Source: Patescibacteria group bacterium
Lineage (GTDB): Bacteria > Patescibacteriota > Patescibacteriia > JBAZBY01
Length of the DNA: 64,000 nucleotides
Reading direction: 5' to 3'
Assembly (NCBI GenBank): GCA_041671225.1
Contig: JBAZBY010000001.1
Location: 174,940 to 238,939, forward strand
A program made the translations under genes and the position numbers. This document shows positions 7,735-62,859 of the stretch, one piece after another. The notes under the pieces are model-generated. The model made no database searches. It was not told where the DNA came from and worked only from the letters and a program-made list of their open reading frames with translations. The first letter of the stretch is position 1; each line of letters starts with the position of its first letter.

Positions 7735-8252
7735 CTACGCCTTGACGTGCTCAGGGAGCGCGAAGACGGTGACCACCCCTACGGCATCCACCGCGCACTC
7801 GTGCGTGATGGGGTGTTTGCCCACCTGGTGAGCCCCCATGAGGGTCACCGCCGAGGTGAACGCTGCATCGTCGCCGCTGTCGGTGACGATGTAGCCCAGG
7901 CCGGTGAGCCCGCTGATGAGGCTCAGGGCCTGCTCGAGGTTCTCCGGCGGAAGTCCCACGGGAACGCCACCCTGCTCGAAGTGTACGAAGATCTGCGGAT
8001 AGGAACCGCAAGCGGTATCATGATCGTTGCGCCACGCCTCCGTCACCGCATACCCGCTGTGCAGAAGCTGGCTGATCACCTGGGAAATCCCCAGGCCGTA
8101 CACCGGCTCGTTCCTCTGGAGGCTCGGCCGCTCCTGAGGCGACTTGGCTGAGGTGTGCGTGTGCTTGGGAAGCAAAGCGAAGAGACCCGGCGGGACAGCC
8201 CCCATTGAGGCGAACAGAGCGCGCAGGTCCACGGACACGGGGAGTTGAGGCA
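7735..8252 (-). CDS. Hypothetical protein (172 aa, high-GC); possible Cys/His hydrolase but no confident family
   Basis: ORF 7735-8274; start chosen at MPQLPV (8252) with AAGGAGGG upstream. The antisense ORF 7456-8151 is rejected as a high-GC artefact. Confidence 0.5.
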
Positions 8253-8363
8253 TAAAGCCCTCCTTCTGTCGCACGCGTGCGACGGCTGTTCTGGCAACTT
8301 GGGGAAGAACGATTGAACTACACTCTCCTTACCGGATATCCCTCATGGTGTCAATAAGCGCGC

Positions 8364-8407
8364 TATACCCAGAACCGCTTTTGTATGAATAAGTGGCGCT
8401 GGGTATA
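8364..8407 (+). promoter_or_regulatory. uvrC promoter (TTGTAT-17-TATACT, leaderless geometry) bracketed by the palindrome TATACCCAG-N26-CTGGGTATA
   Basis: TATACT ends 6 nt before the uvrC ATG (8416). A perfect 9-bp inverted repeat spans the -35/-10 region, making it a candidate repressor operator. Confidence 0.45.
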
Positions 8408-8415
8408 CTGCACGT

Positions 8416-10194
8416 ATGGAAATCCTCCAGAAAGACCATAAAACTCTGCCCACCACCCCCGGCGTCTACCTAATGAAGGATGACAAACAGAAAATCCTCT
8501 ACGTGGGCAAGGCGATCAACCTCCGGTCGCGCATTTCTTCATATTTCCAAAAACGCGCAAGCCTTGATCCAGCAAAGGCGATGATGGTGGGTCTCGTGAA
8601 GTACATTGAAGTGATGCTTGTATCAACAGAACAAGAAGCCTTGCTCCTAGAGGCAACGTTGATAAAAAAATATCTGCCGCCATACAACGTGGTGATGCGG
8701 GACGACAAATACTACCTATACATCGCGATCGACGAGCGCGAGGAATTCCCCACGCTTCAAGAAGTACGGCGGCTGCCAAAGCACCGCATGACGGTCTATG
8801 GCCCATATGCTTCTGCTGGCGTGGTGCACCAAACACTGAAGCTGCTCAAGAATATCTTTGGCTACCGCACCTGCGAGCCGAACCAAAGCAAGGCCTGTTT
8901 TGATTATCACCTTGGGCGCTGCCGCGGCGTCTGCATCGGAAAGATCACCCCCGCGCAGTACCGCGCAGAAGTGATTCAGCCCATCAAGCGTTTTCTCTCC
9001 GGCAGGCTCTCATGGATAGAAAAGAAATTGGAAAACGACATGGCGGAGGCGGCGCACGCAAAAGAATACGAGCGTGCAGGGATGCTCCGCGACCAGCTTC
9101 ACTCCGTGCAAAAGCTTACCTCCCGCCAGGTCGCCGTGAGCGCGCAGCATATTGACGTTGATGTACTCTCGCTCGCACGTGATAAATACTGGACGGTGCT
9201 GCATCTCTTCCGCGTCCGTGAGGGCAAGATGATCGATCAAAAAGCGTTTCTCCTGAAAAACCCGGCAGAAACAGCAAGTGAAGAGATCTTTGCCGCATTC
9301 ATGGAACAATATTATGCCGGCACCGCAGACCGCCCGAAGCGCGTGCTCATGCCTGTGCTGCCAGCGAGCGCAAAAGAACTTGAAAAACTCCTTGGCATGA
9401 AGCTTACCTCTCCGCGACGCGGTGCGCTCAAACGCTTACTTGAGCAAGGCACGCTCAATGCAGACGCAGAACTTGCCCGTCGCAAATTGAACTGGGCTGG
9501 CGATGCAGAAAAGGCGCGCAAGGCGCTTGAAGAGATCTCCCGCGCGCTGAAGCTCGTCAAGCATCCCAAGCGCATTGAGACATATGATATCTCCAACAAC
9601 CAGGGGGCGCACCCCGTGGGTTCAATGATCGTCTTTGAGGACGGGCAGGCGAAGAAGGACGCATACAAAAAATTCACCATCAAAACCATCAAGGGCCCGA
9701 ACGACCCGCACATGATGGCGGAGATGCTGAGGAGACGACTCCAGCATCTTCCTGCACACGATTCCAATGCGCCGTGGCCTGCGCCGGACCTCATCATTCT
9801 TGACGGCGGCAAGAGCCAACTCGGCGTGGTGGGACCGGTCATAAAAAAACTCGCACCAAATATCCCATACGTCGGCCTCGCAAAAAAAGAAGAGGAATTG
9901 ATCGTGCCGGGACGAAGGGGAAGCATCCGCCTGCCAGAAACAAGCGAGGGGCTGTATCTCCTGCAGCGCATGCGCGATGAAGCGCATCGCTTTGCCATCA
10001 CCTTTTACCGCGGCAAGCACCGCAAGGCTGAAGAAAGGAGCATATTGGATGACATTCCCGGCATCGGGCCAAAACTCAAGAAGGGATTGCTGTTGGCGTT
10101 CGGGTCAGTGGATGGCATTCGCAAGGCGAGTTTTGCAGAGCGCGTGCGGGTTGTTGGCAAGGCAAAAGCAGAACTGCTGGAAAAGCATCTATAA
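8416..10194 (+). CDS. uvrC: Excinuclease ABC subunit C
   Basis: N-terminal GIY-YIG motif (GVYLMKDDKQKILYVGKAINLRSR), UvrBC-interaction region, and C-terminal RNaseH-like/HhH region. Confidence 0.95.
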   Translation: MEILQKDHKTLPTTPGVYLMKDDKQKILYVGKAINLRSRISSYFQKRASLDPAKAMMVGLVKYIEVMLVSTEQEALLLEATLIKKYLPPYNVVMRDDKYYLYIAIDEREEFPTLQEVRRLPKHRMTVYGPYASAGVVHQTLKLLKNIFGYRTCEPNQSKACFDYHLGRCRGVCIGKITPAQYRAEVIQPIKRFLSGRLSWIEKKLENDMAEAAHAKEYERAGMLRDQLHSVQKLTSRQVAVSAQHIDVDVLSLARDKYWTVLHLFRVREGKMIDQKAFLLKNPAETASEEIFAAFMEQYYAGTADRPKRVLMPVLPASAKELEKLLGMKLTSPRRGALKRLLEQGTLNADAELARRKLNWAGDAEKARKALEEISRALKLVKHPKRIETYDISNNQGAHPVGSMIVFEDGQAKKDAYKKFTIKTIKGPNDPHMMAEMLRRRLQHLPAHDSNAPWPAPDLIILDGGKSQLGVVGPVIKKLAPNIPYVGLAKKEEELIVPGRRGSIRLPETSEGLYLLQRMRDEAHRFAITFYRGKHRKAEERSILDDIPGIGPKLKKGLLLAFGSVDGIRKASFAERVRVVGKAKAELLEKHL

Positions 10195-55770: not shown

Positions 55771-56040
55771 ATGCCAATCAAAAAAGCATCAATCAAAGAC
55801 CTCAAACAGTCAAAAGCACGACAGGATAAAAACCGTCGTGTGAAGACGAGTATCCGCCGCCAGATCAAGGAACTGCGCAGTGCGGCAAAAGAGCAGGACA
55901 AAAAAAAGGCCAGCGATATTCTTGCCAAAACAATTAAGGCAATGGATACGGCTGTGAGTAACGGTGTGCTTAAAAAAAACACCGCCGCGCGCAACATATC
56001 GCGCCTGACCAAACTCGTGAACGGTCTCAAAAAAATCTAA
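55771..56040 (+). CDS. rpsT: 30S ribosomal protein S20
   Basis: MPIKKASIKDLKQSKARQDKNRRVKTSIRRQIKEL is typical S20; start at the internal ATG of the track ORF. Confidence 0.9.
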   Translation: MPIKKASIKDLKQSKARQDKNRRVKTSIRRQIKELRSAAKEQDKKKASDILAKTIKAMDTAVSNGVLKKNTAARNISRLTKLVNGLKKI

Positions 56041-57014
56041 ATAGCGAGTGGGATAAGGAGTCGTTCGAGTAATATCCGGGGATCCACCCGGCTGGTTTTC
56101 ATTGTGTATTCAGCACCGAGAAGATTGTGATGGAGTGTAATGAGCGCCGCAAGTGAAAAACGGCTGCTTTGTTCTAATACCTTCCGCGCAACAAAAGGGT
56201 GCACGCCAAGATCGCGCACAAGGACATCGGCCGTGGGCCGCTCCATTGCCTTTGCGCCAAGTAACAGCCGAACATGCCGGCCGAGCATCGCAAAGAGATA
56301 TGCAGGCGTCTCCCCGTTCGCAAAATGATCTTCAAGAATCGCAAGCGCGCGCTTGCCCCTTCCTTCGCCCAGTGCATCGGTAAGCGCAAATATGTTGACG
56401 TCAAGCTGCCCAACAGTCATCTCACCAACCATCTCTTCTGTAATGGGCGCCCCGGCAGCCCGGGCGGCAAGTTTATCAAGCTCATGTGCGAGCATCCACG
56501 TGTCATCTCCGCATGCTGCAAGTAAGCGTATCATCGCAGCTTCTTCACAGCTCGCATCGGCATCATCAAGGCGGCGCTTTGCCCAGATTTTACGTTCTCG
56601 CGGCGTGAAAGGGGGAAACGGTTCATGCTTCACGCTTTTGTTTTTGGTAAGCGCGGCAAGATATTTTGTGATACCTACGGGAATGCGGTCCTTTGTTTTT
56701 TCTGTCGTCAATTCCGGCTCAACAAGAAGCAACACGACTTCTTCTGGTAATGTCACATGCGCAAAAAATTCCGTAAGCTGCTTGAGCACTGCAGCCTTTG
56801 CCTTACTCGCGCGATCCAATACGATCATTCGGTTAGACGTAAAAAGCCCTGCCGTGCGCGTCTGGCCGATCACTTCATCTATTGTCGCTTCTGAACCAGA
56901 AAGCACGGCAATGTTATTCCCATGCTCGTCGTATTTTTTACGAAAGGCCTCAATAAGTTGGCGCTTTCTTTCAAAAACGCGGTAACTATCCGGACCGGTA
57001 AGTAACAGTATCAT
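56037..57014 (-). CDS. holA: DNA polymerase III subunit delta
   Basis: 325 aa; MILLLTGPDSYRV...AGLFTSNRMIVL matches the HolA N-terminal pattern; conserved rpsT-holA adjacency. Confidence 0.85.
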   Translation of the reverse strand: MILLLTGPDSYRVFERKRQLIEAFRKKYDEHGNNIAVLSGSEATIDEVIGQTRTAGLFTSNRMIVLDRASKAKAAVLKQLTEFFAHVTLPEEVVLLLVEPELTTEKTKDRIPVGITKYLAALTKNKSVKHEPFPPFTPRERKIWAKRRLDDADASCEEAAMIRLLAACGDDTWMLAHELDKLAARAAGAPITEEMVGEMTVGQLDVNIFALTDALGEGRGKRALAILEDHFANGETPAYLFAMLGRHVRLLLGAKAMERPTADVLVRDLGVHPFVARKVLEQSSRFSLAALITLHHNLLGAEYTMKTSRVDPRILLERLLIPLAI

Positions 57015-57105
57015 AGGGCTTGTATCTTGACATGCTGGCGTGCGTCTGTAAATGTTGCGGTAGATTCACCCGATCTTTCCACCCTGCGAGCTGGAGGGCT
57101 CTGCA

Positions 57106-57372
57106 ATGCGCTACTGTCCATCATGTCAGCAGCCGCTCCCGGAAAGCGGCACATGCCAGACCCTAAAATGCCAACAGGCCACAGCCCTTGGCAAGGGTCA
57201 ATGCTCTCTTTGCGACTCCGCACTCCACGAAGGCCACTGTCCCGCATGCGAACACGTATCGGCAGTAACAACGTCGCGCGTGTGCGCCACACACCACGTC
57301 CAGCTCGCGCCGGACGGAACCTGCCCCCACTGCGAAGGGGTCTGCCTCAGCGCACTGCTGGGGACAGCCTGA
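57106..57372 (+). CDS. Cys-rich small protein (88 aa; 12 Cys as 4 CxxC pairs plus others): double zinc-ribbon-like, high-GC
   Basis: MRYCPSCQ...CSLC...CPAC...CPHC; GGAGGG SD 7 nt upstream; divergent from holA. Confidence 0.55.
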   Translation: MRYCPSCQQPLPESGTCQTLKCQQATALGKGQCSLCDSALHEGHCPACEHVSAVTTSRVCATHHVQLAPDGTCPHCEGVCLSALLGTA

Positions 57373-57377
57373 AAGGA

Positions 57378-57635
57378 ATGACGATGGATTCTTTGCTCTT
57401 CTACCGCGGACGGCTTCTGTGCATCGAAGTGGACGAAAGTGGCATGCCGGAAGCGATCCCAATGGGATTCAACCCCGGTCAGCGCCTCCTCCGGCGTCGG
57501 AGGGCATCACGGCACCTCAAACCCTCTCGACTCGAGGAAGGACTCGCCATATCCACATTGGATGAGGAAACAACCGGACTCCTGGATCTCGCAGAAGGTC
57601 CGCCGATTGCTACGCCTCCTCCTCGCATGAAGTGA
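57378..57635 (+). CDS. Hypothetical protein (85 aa) immediately downstream of the Cys-rich gene; same high-GC cassette
   Basis: AAAGGAA SD; Arg-rich centre (LLRRRRASRHLKPSR) and Pro-rich end; the cassette terminator follows. Confidence 0.4.
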   Translation: MTMDSLLFYRGRLLCIEVDESGMPEAIPMGFNPGQRLLRRRRASRHLKPSRLEEGLAISTLDEETTGLLDLAEGPPIATPPPRMK

Positions 57636-57665
57636 CAGATCACAACCTCGTTCTCTCCGCACTCC

Positions 57666-57710
57666 GCGCCGACCCCTGGGCTTCTCCCTTGGGTCGGCGC
57701 TTCTTTTAAT
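57666..57710 (+). terminator. Rho-independent terminator of the Cys-rich cassette (10-bp stem GCGCCGACCC/GGGTCGGCGC plus TTCTTTTAATCCTCTTCTTT)
   Basis: Perfect inverted repeat followed by a T-rich tract. Confidence 0.65.
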
Positions 57711-57765: not shown

Positions 57766-60495
57766 TTACAGTGGGCTCATCTCACCCCAATTCTTCCCCA
57801 CCTCTGCATCCACAATGATCGGCACAGGGAGCTTCATCGCCTTCTCCATTTTTTCTTCAACAAAAGCCGCGACCTTCTTCACATCACCTTCTGGCACTTC
57901 AAGAACAAGTTCGTCATGCACCTGCAAAATCATGCGCGCCTTCTGAGAAACATTATGAAGCTCTGCATACACATCCACCATCGCCTTCTTCATGAGATCC
58001 GCAGCCGTACCCTGGAGCGGCATATTCACCGCCATGCGCTCTGCGGCGGAGCGGAGCATGCCATTGGAACTATCAATTTCCGGCAACGGCCTGCGACGCC
58101 CAAAAAGCGTCTCTGCATACTTGTTCCGCTTCGCGAATCGTTTTGCATCCTCCAGCCACTTTGCAAGCCCCGTGTACACGGCAAAGTACTGCTCAATGAA
58201 ATCCCGCGCCTCATTCAGCGGAATACCCGCGCCCTTTGCGAGGCCGAACATTCCCTGTCCATAGAGCACGCCGAAGTTCACCGCCTTGGCAGCATAGCGC
58301 TGCTCTTTTGTGACCTCATCAAGCGGAACGTTCCACACGCGCGCTGCGGTTGCCGCATGAATATCTTCGCCCTTCTTAAAACTTTCCAACATCGCTGCAT
58401 CCTGAGAAACCGCGGCCGCAAGACGCAATTCAATTTGTGAATAATCACAAGAAAGAAGGCGCATACCTTGCGGAGCAATAAAGGCATTACGAATCTCACG
58501 CCCAAGTTCCGTGCGCACCGGAATATTCTGCAAGTTTGGATTCTGGGAAGAAAGCCGCCCCGTTGCTGCCACGACCTGATTATAACTGGTGTGAATGCGT
58601 TTTGTTCGTTTGTGCACCAACTCGGGCAAGGCATCAAGATACGTGGAAACGAGCTTTGAAAGCTCCCGAAACTCCATGATCATATCAATGATCGGGTGCT
58701 TGCCTTGAAGCTTTTCAAGTTCACTTGCTCGCGTCGAAATGCCGGTCTTTGTATGCCCTAAACCGCTGATAGGAATCTGCATCTTTTGAAAAAGCACTTC
58801 CTGAAGCTGTGACGGCGAATTGATATTGAATTCCACGCCTGCTGCCGTATAAATATCCTGCTCAATCGCCTTGAGGCGCTTTGTGTGTTTTGCGGAGAGT
58901 TTTTTTAAAAAAGTTACATCAACATCCACACCGTTCCGTTCCATATGCGCAAGAACCAGAATCAGCGGCATTTCTATCTCATGAAAAAGTTTCATGAGTC
59001 CTTTTTCTTCCAGTTGCGGCGCGAACTTCTGATACAAACGGAAGGTGTAATCCGCATCTTCCGCCGCATACGGTCCAACCTTCTCAAGTGGCACATCTAG
59101 CATCGTGAGCTGATCCTTCCCCTTCTTGCCGATCAGATCTTCTATCGGTTGCATCTCATATCCGAATTCGCCGAAGACAAGAGTATCCAGCTTGTGCGAC
59201 CGCGAACCGGGATTCAAAAGATATGAAGCGACCATGGTATCAAACGCAACGCCTTTCATGCTGCTGCAGTATCCGTACAGCACTTTAATATCAAACTTGA
59301 GGTTATGTCCGACCTTTTGGATTCGCTCATTCTCAAAAAATGCTTGCAATAATTTAAGCCAATTCGGGTGCTTACGCACGTGCACAAAATATGCTTCCCC
59401 GGCCTTCCATGCGAGGCTAATGCCGATAAGGTCTGCATCGATCGTTTCAAGGCTGTCTGTTTCGGTATCAATCGCCACGACCTTCTGCTTCATGAGCTCG
59501 CCATACATCTTCTGGAACGTTGCATCATCATCGACAAGAATGTAGTTGTGCGTGCCCGTACCCGGCTTTGCGCGCGGTGTCGCTGCTATTGCCGCTGCGT
59601 CACCGTTTGAACCGGGAAGCTGGCCAACCAAACTGCGGAACTCAAGCTCTTGCAAAAGGCTCACTACCTTCGCGCGGTCATATTCTGCAAGCTCCGCATC
59701 CTGCAGCGTGAAATCGATCTTCATGTCCGTAATGATCGTCGCGAGTTTGTATGACTCGAATGCATCCTTCTTGGAGTCAAGAAGCAGGCGCTGAACGCGC
59801 TCGGGGAACGATGCAAATTTTTTTGATTTTTTCTCAAGTGCATCATACATCTTCTCCACTGTGCCAAATGCGGCAAGCAGCTCCGTTGCTGTTTTATCAC
59901 CAATACCTTTTACGCCCGGAATGTTATCTGAGCTATCACCCTTGAGCGCCTTATAATCAATGACCTGCTCAGGCTTAAAACCATATTTTTCAATGAACGC
60001 CTTGCCATCCATCACGGATGACTCCGTTGGGTGGCGACGTGCTTTAAAGATCGTGATCTTGGGATCAATCAACTGAAATGCATCCATGTCCGATGTGACG
60101 ATAACCGTCTCGTCTGCAAGATGTCTCTTTGCTATCGTGCCGATGATGTCATCTGCCTCAAAGCCCTTCTGTTCAAGAATAGGAATATTGAGTGCCTCCA
60201 CAAGTTCGCGTACGCGAGGGATCTGCTCAAACATATCGTCTGGCATCTTCTCGCGCGTGGATTTGTAATCCGCTGAAATAGCATCACGGAACGTCTCTCC
60301 CTCCACATCAAACGCCACCATAAGATACTGCGGTTTCAGTTCACGAATGACGCGGAACAGGATAGCGGCAAAACCATACACCGCATTCACCTGCTCGCCT
60401 TTTTTTGTGGTGAGCGGCGGAATAGCGTGGAATGCCTGATACATCAGGGCATGGCCGTCGATGATCGCAAGACGGGTCTTGGTTTTTTTTGCCAT
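57766..60495 (-). CDS. polA: DNA polymerase I (5'-3' exonuclease plus 3'-5' exo-like plus polymerase domains)
   Basis: N-terminal MAKKTKTRLAIIDGHALMYQAFHA (FEN motif) and polymerase motifs (RRAAKAVNFGVLYG, VHDELVLE). Start at 60495. Confidence 0.96.
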   Translation of the reverse strand: MAKKTKTRLAIIDGHALMYQAFHAIPPLTTKKGEQVNAVYGFAAILFRVIRELKPQYLMVAFDVEGETFRDAISADYKSTREKMPDDMFEQIPRVRELVEALNIPILEQKGFEADDIIGTIAKRHLADETVIVTSDMDAFQLIDPKITIFKARRHPTESSVMDGKAFIEKYGFKPEQVIDYKALKGDSSDNIPGVKGIGDKTATELLAAFGTVEKMYDALEKKSKKFASFPERVQRLLLDSKKDAFESYKLATIITDMKIDFTLQDAELAEYDRAKVVSLLQELEFRSLVGQLPGSNGDAAAIAATPRAKPGTGTHNYILVDDDATFQKMYGELMKQKVVAIDTETDSLETIDADLIGISLAWKAGEAYFVHVRKHPNWLKLLQAFFENERIQKVGHNLKFDIKVLYGYCSSMKGVAFDTMVASYLLNPGSRSHKLDTLVFGEFGYEMQPIEDLIGKKGKDQLTMLDVPLEKVGPYAAEDADYTFRLYQKFAPQLEEKGLMKLFHEIEMPLILVLAHMERNGVDVDVTFLKKLSAKHTKRLKAIEQDIYTAAGVEFNINSPSQLQEVLFQKMQIPISGLGHTKTGISTRASELEKLQGKHPIIDMIMEFRELSKLVSTYLDALPELVHKRTKRIHTSYNQVVAATGRLSSQNPNLQNIPVRTELGREIRNAFIAPQGMRLLSCDYSQIELRLAAAVSQDAAMLESFKKGEDIHAATAARVWNVPLDEVTKEQRYAAKAVNFGVLYGQGMFGLAKGAGIPLNEARDFIEQYFAVYTGLAKWLEDAKRFAKRNKYAETLFGRRRPLPEIDSSNGMLRSAAERMAVNMPLQGTAADLMKKAMVDVYAELHNVSQKARMILQVHDELVLEVPEGDVKKVAAFVEEKMEKAMKLPVPIIVDAEVGKNWGEMSPL

Positions 60496-60532
60496 GACCT
60501 TATTGTACACGCACACGCGTGTCGACGGAAAT

Positions 60533-62629
60533 CTATGCGGAGATGTTGCGCGCTCCGCGGCGGTGCAGCACAAAAAAGACGCCGCCGATGGCGAGCATGA
60601 GCGCGGAAAGCACCAATGCGAGCATGGTCGTTGGTTTAATGGTAAAGGGCTCCTCTGCATGGAGTTCTGTTGTCGTTGCGGCAACGGGTGCCGTCTCAGC
60701 AGGAGACGCCTCATCAGTTGCGGCAAGCACCGCGCCCTTCTGCTCTACGATGTCATCAATGCTGCGCGGAAGAAATTCGTCGTCCAGAAAGAATCCGGTC
60801 ACGGTGATGCCATCCCCGACAAGAAGCGACGCGAGATCGATCCCCGTGCCGCTCTTCACGCGCACGGCAATTGGCCCGGCATCTGTGGCGAGCGTCATGA
60901 GCGTCCGCTGCTTCTTCTCCACCGTACCGCTCACGGTCTCCACGACAGACTCAGACGCCACTGCGTCACTCACCTCAACGCCGCCATCCCGCCCGAGATT
61001 CACCTTCACGCCACTCTGGTCCATGCCGATGACGCCGCGAACGGTCACCACATCATCAAGCGCAAGCTCCGGGAAACGATCCGTGCTGGAGTACACGCGC
61101 ACCAATGCATCGCCCTCGGCAATGTACAGCGTGTGGCTTGCGATCTGGCCCGGCAAAGCAATCACCACGCCAGAAACGGCGACCTTCTCGTTACGGTCCA
61201 GAGATGCAAGGTCAGCAATGCGGCGTGAGGCAAAGCCGTCAGTCTCCGGCGTGATGGCAGCATCCTCCGTTTCCGCATCGATTTTCTCAGACTCCTCATT
61301 TTCTTCGCCGCTCCATTGCCAATGCGTGGATGCTCCATCGCGGAGAAATATCTGATCCTCCGGGGCCGTGCCGAACTCCACGCCGTTCACCTTCTTCCCG
61401 AAGGGATCAATGAGATGGACAACATCCCCGGTATTGTTGAGCATGATGCGGCTCTCTGTGCGCATGATGCGCAGCGTTGCGCCGGACTTCAGCGGGGTAC
61501 TTGCTGCGAGCGTGAACGTCCTACTTCCATCACTCACGGACCATCCATAAAGGTCCACGGTCTTTGCGGCGAAATTCGTTATCTCAACATACTCGCCGGC
61601 AGTATCATCCCCCGGCGGATTCGGAAGCACGGCCGTCAACAGAACATGCGCTGACGTCATCGGTTCTTGGTTTTGGGATTGGGGTGCGGAGTCTTTTGGT
61701 GTTTTGTCGCTTGGTGAGGTATTCGTATTGCTGTTCGTGTTATCAGGCGGAGTTTCGCCGGACGGCGTCTCTCCATCATCTTGCGTAACCGGCGCATTGT
61801 TTTGCACAAAAACCTGAAGCGTCTGCGTTGCAGATGCGCGACCATCACTCACGGTGCAGGAAAGCAAAAATTCGCCTTCTCGTGCGAAGGTCCGTACAAA
61901 CGTTGCTCCGGTGCCGGATGCAGAACCATCCACACTCCAGGAAATAGCCAGCACATCGTTATCCGCATCTGTGGCTTCTGCAGTAAAAGTTGCTGATGTG
62001 CCGACGATCACCTCATCCGGACCCACGCACGCCACATCCGGCGCTTGGTTGGAATTCTCTACCTTTGGCGTTGCAAAAAACCCTTCCACGTCCGCATTGG
62101 CGCTTGCTGTATGCCATGCCTCCGCCGTATCCCCCGGCAGGTCAACGCGATGCCTCTCCATGGATGCCCAATTGCTTCCGCTTGCATACTCACCGGCGAA
62201 CGGAATGCCGATGCCTTCATCCGCAACATCCACCACTGCTCCACCCGCATCGTATAAGTGAAGCAGGAGCTTGGAATTTACGAGCGAGACGGCAGGATCC
62301 ACCACATCCGGCTCCACCATAAGCGCGCTGTTTGCATCCCCGTTCGCATAATTCGCGATAAGGAAGAAGCCGTGCGCCGGAATGGTCTTTCCCGGCAATA
62401 CGAGCATCTCCGTCTCCACGTCGTTGGAGAGCTTGGTGATGCGCCAACCGGAAAGATCGATGTCACTGTCCGTTGTATTGAGGAGCTCTATCCATTCATC
62501 CTGCGCGCTCGCAGGTGAACCCATCCACAGGAGTTCATTGATAATGACGTGAGAAGTTGTTGCCTGCGCAGGCAAAATCCAGACCAATAAAAACACCATC
62601 GCCACGAGAACAAGAATACGTACGTACAT
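60533..62629 (-). CDS. Cell-surface protein with two lamin-tail domains (LTD), a PKD-like domain and a C-terminal TM anchor
   Basis: LTD motifs HVIINELLWMGS..EWIELLNTTDSDIDLSGWRI and VLLTAVLPNP..EYVEITNF..VDLYGWSVSDG; PKD-like VACVGPDEVIVGTSATFTAEATD; C-terminal hydrophobic helix plus HRRGAR. Confidence 0.8.
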   Translation of the reverse strand: MYVRILVLVAMVFLLVWILPAQATTSHVIINELLWMGSPASAQDEWIELLNTTDSDIDLSGWRITKLSNDVETEMLVLPGKTIPAHGFFLIANYANGDANSALMVEPDVVDPAVSLVNSKLLLHLYDAGGAVVDVADEGIGIPFAGEYASGSNWASMERHRVDLPGDTAEAWHTASANADVEGFFATPKVENSNQAPDVACVGPDEVIVGTSATFTAEATDADNDVLAISWSVDGSASGTGATFVRTFAREGEFLLSCTVSDGRASATQTLQVFVQNNAPVTQDDGETPSGETPPDNTNSNTNTSPSDKTPKDSAPQSQNQEPMTSAHVLLTAVLPNPPGDDTAGEYVEITNFAAKTVDLYGWSVSDGSRTFTLAASTPLKSGATLRIMRTESRIMLNNTGDVVHLIDPFGKKVNGVEFGTAPEDQIFLRDGASTHWQWSGEENEESEKIDAETEDAAITPETDGFASRRIADLASLDRNEKVAVSGVVIALPGQIASHTLYIAEGDALVRVYSSTDRFPELALDDVVTVRGVIGMDQSGVKVNLGRDGGVEVSDAVASESVVETVSGTVEKKQRTLMTLATDAGPIAVRVKSGTGIDLASLLVGDGITVTGFFLDDEFLPRSIDDIVEQKGAVLAATDEASPAETAPVAATTTELHAEEPFTIKPTTMLALVLSALMLAIGGVFFVLHRRGARNISA

Positions 62630-62700
62630 AAAACGATGGCCACCAGTGCCACCGTATGTTCCCCGTTTCGCCGGGAAGGGTCTCTCTTTATAAAGTTTTA

Positions 62701-62720
62701 GTGGCCCCCGAAAGGGCCAC
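62701..62720. other. GC hairpin GTGGCCC-CCGAAA-GGGCCAC between prs and the LTD gene (no clear U-tract)
   Basis: Perfect 7-bp stem read from the sequence. Confidence 0.3.
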
Positions 62721-62859
62721 CAAAACAGGTCTCTACAGGCCAGTATAAAAAAACACCCTCGCGGTGTCAAGGGGGGAGTGAAGGCAGGTCAAGAGGAGTA
62801 TTGGGGGCCCGCCAGAAATGGGGGCCCCGCAGGGGTATGAAGAAATGGCCACCGAGTCG

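Follow-up and report, generated by a model that had tools for sequence, protein, structure and literature searches.

Small CPxCG-related zinc-finger proteins form a class defined by motif, with many members in archaea and fewer in bacteria (Tarasov et al. 2008, PMC2253796). By definition its members are shorter than 100 aa and carry two Cys/His pairs – with 2-3 residues within a pair and 7-40 residues between the pairs – of which at least one reads CPxCG, CPxCx or CxxCG (PMC2253796). In Halobacterium salinarum a small zinc-finger protein, Brz, is co-transcribed with a small basic protein, Brb, and the two cooperate in the control of transcription (PMC2253796, PMC3184054); several such zinc-finger/basic-protein pairs have been described (PMC3184054).

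The locus considered here lies in a window of 64,000 nucleotides – the whole stretch of DNA analysed – from the metagenome-assembled genome of an uncultivated member of the Patescibacteria (CPR). Read from sequence, the 751-nt spacer between holA and polA holds two tandem small ORFs on the + strand. ORF1 (57106-57372, +) specifies 88 aa, including 12 Cys and 6 His; ORF2, in a different frame, runs from 57378 or 57384 to 57635 (+) and specifies 85 or 83 aa.

The cysteines of ORF1 invite comparison with the CPxCG class. CSLCD (residues 33-37) and CPACE (45-49) stand 8 residues apart, C60ATH63 and CPHCE (73-77) stand 9 residues apart, and CPSCQ (4-8) is followed 25 residues on by CSLC; with zinc binding predicted, ORF1 falls within the written definition of the class. 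The likeness extends to annotation, in that most members are 'hypothetical' or unannotated and mutually unrelated outside the motif. ORF1 differs in having three modules where the typical member has one, in lacking a CPxCG with the final Gly, and in its host, a CPR bacterium. By its sequence we judge ORF1 a further putative example of the small CPxC zinc-finger class, although membership says little about function because the class is defined by pattern and not by descent.

By analogy of arrangement, the nearest architectural analogue of ORF1 and ORF2 is a pair of the brz-brb type, in which a zinc-finger gene is followed, at very short distance, by a gene for a tiny protein with a basic patch. 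The likeness is one of layout only, with no sequence similarity; moreover, ORF2 is not basic overall (pI 6.6), and Brz and Brb are archaeal and adjoin the genes they regulate.

Other described families stand further off. Residues 21-60 of ORF1 align with Pfam DZR (PF12773) as two consecutive CxxC...CxxC ribbons, but the score of 18.0 bits (E = 0.0034) is below the gathering threshold of 27.3 and ORF1 is therefore not a member by the Pfam rule; DZR_2 (PF18912) scores 11.9 bits, below its threshold of 27.0. Against PDB sequences ORF1 gives non-significant matches of Cys pattern only, to eL37 (E = 0.035) and to the parkin IBR domain (E = 0.11), while ORF2 gives no match. In the parkin case (PDB 6n13 and others) phmmer aligns CPSC..G.C....C...C..C....HEG.C, at E = 0.11-0.16, and the Pfam IBR model does not match; kinship with the IBR/RING2 domains of RBR ligases was rejected, the two sharing a Cys pattern and no more. 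No zf-HC2 or other anti-sigma model of Pfam matches ORF1 at E up to 1, nor does any of NCBIfam, and an ECF sigma-factor gene, which would be expected beside the gene of a zinc-binding anti-sigma (ZAS) factor and is usually co-transcribed with it, is absent from the listed neighbours from holA to uvrB and from polA to the Vut_1-family gene. Neither product has a toxin or antitoxin domain in Pfam, NCBIfam or PADLOC, and no Rfam 15 family reaches its gathering score over the cassette.

Layout and expression signals of the spacer

holA (56037-57014, -; Pfam DNA_pol3_delta and delta_C) is followed on its side of the spacer by rpsT, a GATase-domain protein, a cytidylyltransferase-like gene and uvrB. 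On the other side stand polA (57766-60495, -), an LTD/PKD protein and a Vut_1-family protein. In all databases polA is given as 909 aa (MAKKTK...); the mechanical ORF runs 77 codons further upstream (60496-60726, -), to 986 aa from a TTG, and this Arg- and Pro-rich extension looks non-coding. The large LTD- and PKD-domain protein directly upstream of polA (60533-62770, -) keeps its position in most of the relatives examined.

On the + strand the spacer reads, in order, a conserved block, GGAGGG, ORF1, AAGGA, ORF2, and a hairpin with a T-run. A preliminary description of this DNA had proposed a compact two-gene unit, divergent from holA and closed by a rho-independent terminator, with Shine-Dalgarno (SD) sequences on both genes and an 85-aa, Arg- and Pro-rich second product; its ORF coordinates and residue counts (12 Cys, four CxxC) are correct, and the layout is as it stated except that the intergenic gap given as 6 nt is in fact 5 nt after the ORF1 stop. 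Depending on the start of ORF2, the gap is 5-11 nt. SD-like sequences precede both genes: GGAGGG (57093-57098, +) lies 7 nt before the ATG of ORF1, and AAGGA (57373-57377, +) lies directly past the ORF1 stop and 6 nt before ATG 57384. By comparison, a 5-mer SD core lies upstream of just 2.2% of random positions in the window. Because AAGGA abuts ATG 57378, ATG 57384 is the likelier start, and it is the one picked by one gene caller. The SD of ORF2 begins within the stop codon of ORF1, a layout that fits translational coupling, and the small ORF of the nearest relative, L004, has the same GAAAGGA context ahead of its start.

At the far end is a terminator-like hairpin (57666-57700, +) with its T-run, UUCUUUUA, directly after it; the two together span 57666-57708. 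The hairpin folds with a dG of -28.7 kcal/mol (z = -4.9; 0 of 200 shuffles fold as well) and is real as a structure; a simple terminator scan missed it because of its long loop. The sole Rfam 15 match, to CcsR1, covers this hairpin (57622-57705) with 20.3 bits where the gathering score is 65.3 (E = 0.097); it was judged a chance, sub-threshold match to a C/U-rich hairpin.

The promoter is a less settled matter. A conserved block, ATCTTGACAT-N12-CTGTAAATGTTG (57024-57057, strand ambiguous), recurs with the same spacing in two related loci, L004 and L005, and reads CTATCTTGACATGGA...CTGCAACG in two others, L010 and L011. On the + strand it offers TTGACA (57027-57032), a gap of 16 nt and TAAATG (57049-57054), that is, a perfect -35 with a -10 so weak that a sigma-70 scan did not call it. 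On the - strand it offers TTTACA (57052-57047), a gap of 17 nt and TGT-CAAGAT (57029-57024); 9 nt then separate its end from the holA ATG. No SD-like sequence precedes holA in the window (57012-57057) or in L004 (5560-5600), L005 (5970-6013) and L010 (3345-3388). Given this lack of an SD and the reading of the block on the holA strand, the block may be conserved because it serves a leaderless holA, whether alone or together with the small genes. On that view the holA mRNA may have little or no leader, its promoter and the one suggested for the small genes overlapping and facing each other. The TTGACA block can equally be read as the promoter of the small genes or of a leaderless holA, and the earlier picture of a self-contained, insulated cassette is thus left with an uncertain promoter of its own.

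Two other ORFs in the spacer were considered and rejected as genes. A 202-aa ORF (57027-57635) that would join the whole + strand stretch into a single gene has an upstream part that scores like off-frame sequence, and its TTG start falls inside the TTGACA block. An antisense ORF of 78 or 93 aa (57011-57292, -), called by ENA, crosses the conserved block; its poor codon score and lack of conservation in the relatives mark it as probably a gene-caller artefact. In the ENA assembly, which is of the same genome, the 78-aa version overlaps the start of holA by 4 nt.

Coding evidence and family searches

Is ORF1 a gene? Its Cys pattern is far above chance. The four CxxC pairs (CPSC, CSLC, CPAC and CPHC) set it apart: the window has 648 stop-to-stop ORFs of 50 aa or more, and ORF1 is the sole short one among them with as many. 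When the DNA of ORF1 was shuffled with dinucleotides preserved, four CxxC appeared in one or another forward frame in just 2 of 20,000 shuffles. The zinc-ribbon-like pattern to which the preliminary description drew attention is supported. Three putative zinc sites can be predicted, C4/C7/C17/C22, C33/C36/C45/C48 and C60/H63-64/C73/C76 (plus C80), and the N-terminus reads M-x-x-CPxC.

When codon usage is scored as log-odds, with 29 long ORFs of the window as the training set, the answer for ORF1 is divided. Its full score of -0.20 lies at the 1st percentile of real gene chunks, with no frame distinctive, and is dominated by an odd amino-acid make-up. Its synonymous-only score, 0.056, is higher than that of either other frame and falls at the 98th percentile against off-frame segments and at the 8th against in-frame gene chunks. 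ORF2 fares better: its full score of +0.148 ranks at the 99th percentile when set against off-frame segments and at the 7th against true gene chunks, its synonymous-only score of 0.102 at the 99th and 23rd percentiles of off-frame segments and in-frame chunks respectively, and its GC1>GC3>GC2 pattern agrees with that of the genome's genes. Host-like synonymous codon use in the proposed frames indicates that both ORFs are probably translated. Three gene calls of the same sequence omit ORF1: those of NCBI and Logan hold only ORF2, annotated by NCBI as hypothetical protein WC266_01175, and that of ENA holds the antisense ORF. On balance we think that ORF2 is probably a gene and that the likelihood leans towards ORF1 being one too, in which case standard annotation has plausibly missed an 88-aa protein of a CPR genome, with metal binding predicted from its sequence.

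ORF2 contains 10 Arg and 9 Pro. It opens with a stretch that resembles a beta-hairpin, has the patch RLLRRRRASRH at its centre and ends in a tail that is acidic and rich in proline. AF2 models from single sequences are poor for both products, with a pLDDT of 52 for ORF1 and 47 for ORF2.

Searches for relatives left both products as orphans. NCBIfam, PADLOC and PHROGs give no usable match for either, and with PADLOC-DB 2.0 neither these two nor the small ORFs found at this position in related genomes match at E up to 1. The preliminary description had placed neither product in a known family and had seen no domain in ORF2; both statements hold across Pfam, NCBIfam, PADLOC, PHROGs and PDB. A word-indexed search of 5.8 billion proteins returned nothing for ORF1, not even itself, and only itself for ORF2. 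Exhaustive HMMER search of 1.84 billion representative proteins found no relative of ORF1; three matches were set aside as repetitive proteins aligned in many short stretches. Scans of viral contigs with ORF1 and ORF2 and of JGI metagenomes with ORF1 found nothing. A metagenome scan with the conserved promoter block produced two chance matches in AT-rich, unrelated contigs, and a HolA-based scan of genome contigs a single, spurious locus. Two loci, L002 and L003, do not differ from the window and offered no within-species variation.

A structured RNA in place of genes was also considered and rejected. Over the cassette no Rfam family was identified and ARAGORN found no tRNA or tmRNA; the two halves of the cassette fold with z of -0.99 and +0.59, inside the range of control gene chunks. 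The whole transcript has a fold z of -3.3, a value drawn from 20 shuffles only and given no weight here.

The polA-holA slot in related genomes

In the closest genomes available the genes follow one another as in the window: LTD/PKD protein, polA, slot, holA, rpsT. A purF-like gene stands beside rpsT in the window, L005, L006 and L007 and is absent in L004; in L013 and L014 there is no holA downstream of polA.

What lies within the slot differs from genome to genome. In L004, the nearest relative by PolA (70% identical), a slot of 414 nt holds a single small ORF, called as 83 aa and more likely 67 aa from a GTG that follows AAGGAGG; there is no equivalent of ORF1, and the promoter block is followed almost at once by the small ORF. 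In L005 (PolA 55%) the slot is 486 nt and holds a 117-aa ORF with 14 Cys that starts MDSCPGC. L010 and L011 (PolA about 55%) have slots of 310 and 298 nt with basic ORFs of 64 and 61 aa. L007 (PolA 56%, slot 609 nt) holds a FabA/ApeI-like gene, L016 (PolA 54%) a FabA/ApeI-like gene together with an MFS transporter, and L015 (PolA 53%, slot 1,067 nt) a 171-aa ORF on the opposite strand. In L006 (PolA 56%) the slot of 692 nt (8154-8845) lacks the TTGACA block and any convincing ORF. The view of the pair as an accessory unit, already put forward in the preliminary description, is borne out by its absence from the nearest relative and by the presence of other genes in others.

The Cys-rich ORF of L005 (5563-5913, - in the locus) merits separate mention. 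It appears in no gene call, has its own SD and terminator, and comprises two CxGC...C...C.C..C modules; its only Pfam match is zf-LITAF-like and sub-threshold (E = 0.065).

The borders of the slot are more constant than its contents. L004, L005, L010 and L011 all keep the TTGACA block beside holA and an SD-like sequence before the start codon, and in these four and L007 the slot ends in an equivalent hairpin with a T-run, the relatives' terminators having been compared by individual folds. The Cys-rich ORF of L005 thus sits behind the same conserved block, and ahead of an equivalent terminator, as do ORF1 and ORF2.

The proteins themselves show no such continuity. Similarity between ORF1 and the Cys-rich ORF of L005 is not significant by composition-preserving shuffles (p = 0.08), local alignment of slot proteins across lineages gives p >= 0.06 for all pairs save L010-L011, and BLASTP of ORF1 and of ORF2 against the L004 ORF is likewise not significant. 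Homology between ORF2 and the L004 ORF through LYL..D..G.PE and LE.GL..DEE, as seen by eye, is statistically indefensible and was discarded.

The most telling comparison is between L005 and the pair L010 and L011. Their PolA proteins are 89% identical and the DNA of their flanking genes 75-83% identical; the slot interiors of L005 (5528-6013) and of L010 (3079-3388) and L011 (5734-6031), by contrast, align no better than shuffled sequence and their ORFs are unrelated. Homology ends just past TTGACAYGGA and returns at the terminator stem, and the position of these breakpoints suggests replacement of the cargo and not gradual divergence. Between L010 and L011 (PolA 93% identical) the slot ORFs are 75% identical, with an in-frame indel of 3 codons and a dN/dS of 0.44, which shows that the slot encodes proteins under some constraint. 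Differing content between kept borders thus marks the slot as a site of rapid cargo turnover.

The polA neighbourhood as a whole is variable in relatives. Between the LTD/PKD gene and polA we encountered a ParE toxin with its partner, and elsewhere a GIY-YIG gene, a Tad4-family gene that is accompanied by a phage integrase on the downstream side of polA, FabA/ApeI-like genes and, in the slot, an MFS transporter; these variable regions lie at L011 2429-2976, L013 2461-2796, L014 5896-8688, L007 7667-8137 and L016 2955-4968.

Explanations of the locus and their meaning

The reading we favour, with about an even chance of being right, is that ORF1 and ORF2 form a real, lineage-specific operon of two genes – a small zinc-ribbon protein and a partner – that is accessory and occupies a fast-turnover slot between polA and holA. 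A single + strand transcription unit would then yield two small cytoplasmic proteins. ORF1 would fold as a string of three zinc knuckle pairs, binding about 3 Zn per chain, and by analogy with other such proteins its role would lie in binding, to nucleic acid or to a partner protein, and not in catalysis. ORF2, presumably made in step with ORF1 through translational coupling, would be a mostly disordered partner, with the Arg patch and the acidic tail as possible binding surfaces. The pair would be dispensable, either recently gained or recently diverged beyond recognition, and would not be part of the adjoining replication machinery.

A critical issue is whether both frames are genes. It is conceivable, if rather unlikely, that ORF2 alone is one and that the stretch of ORF1 is a 5' leader that is not translated, or newly inserted non-coding DNA, with a Cys pattern that arose by coincidence. 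The omission of ORF1 from three independent gene calls, its poor full codon score, the failure to find a homologue anywhere, and the arrangement in L004 – where promoter block is succeeded by small ORF with nothing like ORF1 between – are all what would be expected on that account. Against it must be set the rarity of four CxxC among shuffles, a GGAGGG at ideal spacing before a protein that begins M-x-x-CPxC, the synonymous score that favours this frame over the other two, and the Cys-rich counterpart at the same position in L005; a leader, moreover, would have neither a special RNA fold (z = -0.99) nor an Rfam match. More radically, neither ORF may be functional, the spacer being junk DNA, DNA in decay or a transcript that encodes no protein, within an intergenic region that varies, and its frames standing open by chance where GC is high. 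That both ORFs are orphans, that slot interiors are unalignable even among close relatives and that the slot of L006 runs to 692 nt with no convincing ORF would sit well with this, as would the fact that the frame of ORF2 is open through all of ORF1 (the 202-aa ORF), from which it follows that frames stay open easily here. We nonetheless think it distinctly improbable given the codon scores of ORF2, the SD-like sequences ahead of starts in the window and in L004, L005, L010 and L011, the in-frame indel and dN/dS between L010 and L011, and the want of any RNA family or fold signal; in addition, a genome of ~1 Mb would rarely retain 750 nt of junk.

The origin and kind of the pair raise further alternatives. 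The preliminary description had called the cassette high in GC and compositionally foreign. At 0.604 (ORF1 0.629) its GC is indeed above the window mean of 0.519 (sd 0.043) and at the 95.7th percentile of 530-nt tiles of the window, yet it remains inside the window's range, the tile maximum being 0.66; 'high in GC' is right in part only, and with synonymous codon use that is host-like, 'foreign' is not supported. Recent acquisition from a foreign source – a phage, a plasmid, or another phylum such as the high-GC Actinobacteria – could nevertheless be argued from the elevated GC, from the absence of the cassette in L004 and from the swapping of slot cargo between close relatives. We consider it improbable, since no donor emerged from viral contigs, JGI metagenomes, the 5.8 billion proteins or the 1.84 billion representatives, several host genes in the window are just as GC-rich, synonymous preferences are those of the host, and within the window no integrase, flanking repeats, cassette repeats or paralogues are linked to the cassette. 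Very improbable indeed is a toxin-antitoxin, anti-sigma/partner or anti-phage module, of which the first two had been suggested at the outset. A pair of small genes, closely coupled and accessory in position, would suit such a module, mobile genes, a ParE pair among them, do lie near polA in relatives, and H41-x3-C45-x2-C48 of ORF1 has the letter pattern of the ZAS motif; but an 88-residue protein with 12 Cys and 6 His could easily contain HxxxCxxC by chance, Pfam (including zf-HC2 and toxin and antitoxin models), NCBIfam, PADLOC and PHROGs are silent at E up to 1, and there is no sigma-factor gene among the neighbours, within about 5 kb.

A bolder interpretation extends the favoured operon reading to the whole slot. 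The polA-holA spacer would then be a dedicated expression slot, with borders – the TTGACA block and a CCGACC...GGGTCGG terminator – that persist while the orphan small genes between them, unrelated to one another, are exchanged, even at 89% PolA identity. We regard this as unlikely. Occupants of the slot include Cys-rich zinc-ribbon proteins in two lineages, basic/acidic micro-proteins and a FabA-like gene. Were the interpretation true, the slot would represent either cassette exchange that proceeds without a recombinase or a cradle for the de novo origin of small proteins in ultra-small genomes, and ORF1 would be a newly born or fast-evolving multi-zinc-ribbon protein.

The ORF1/ORF2 pair is modest taken alone, and the turnover slot is of greater interest: a site between two essential replication genes at which small genes turn over fast and the bordering signals stay. 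It could be a natural case in which to see how tiny genomes gain and lose micro-proteins.
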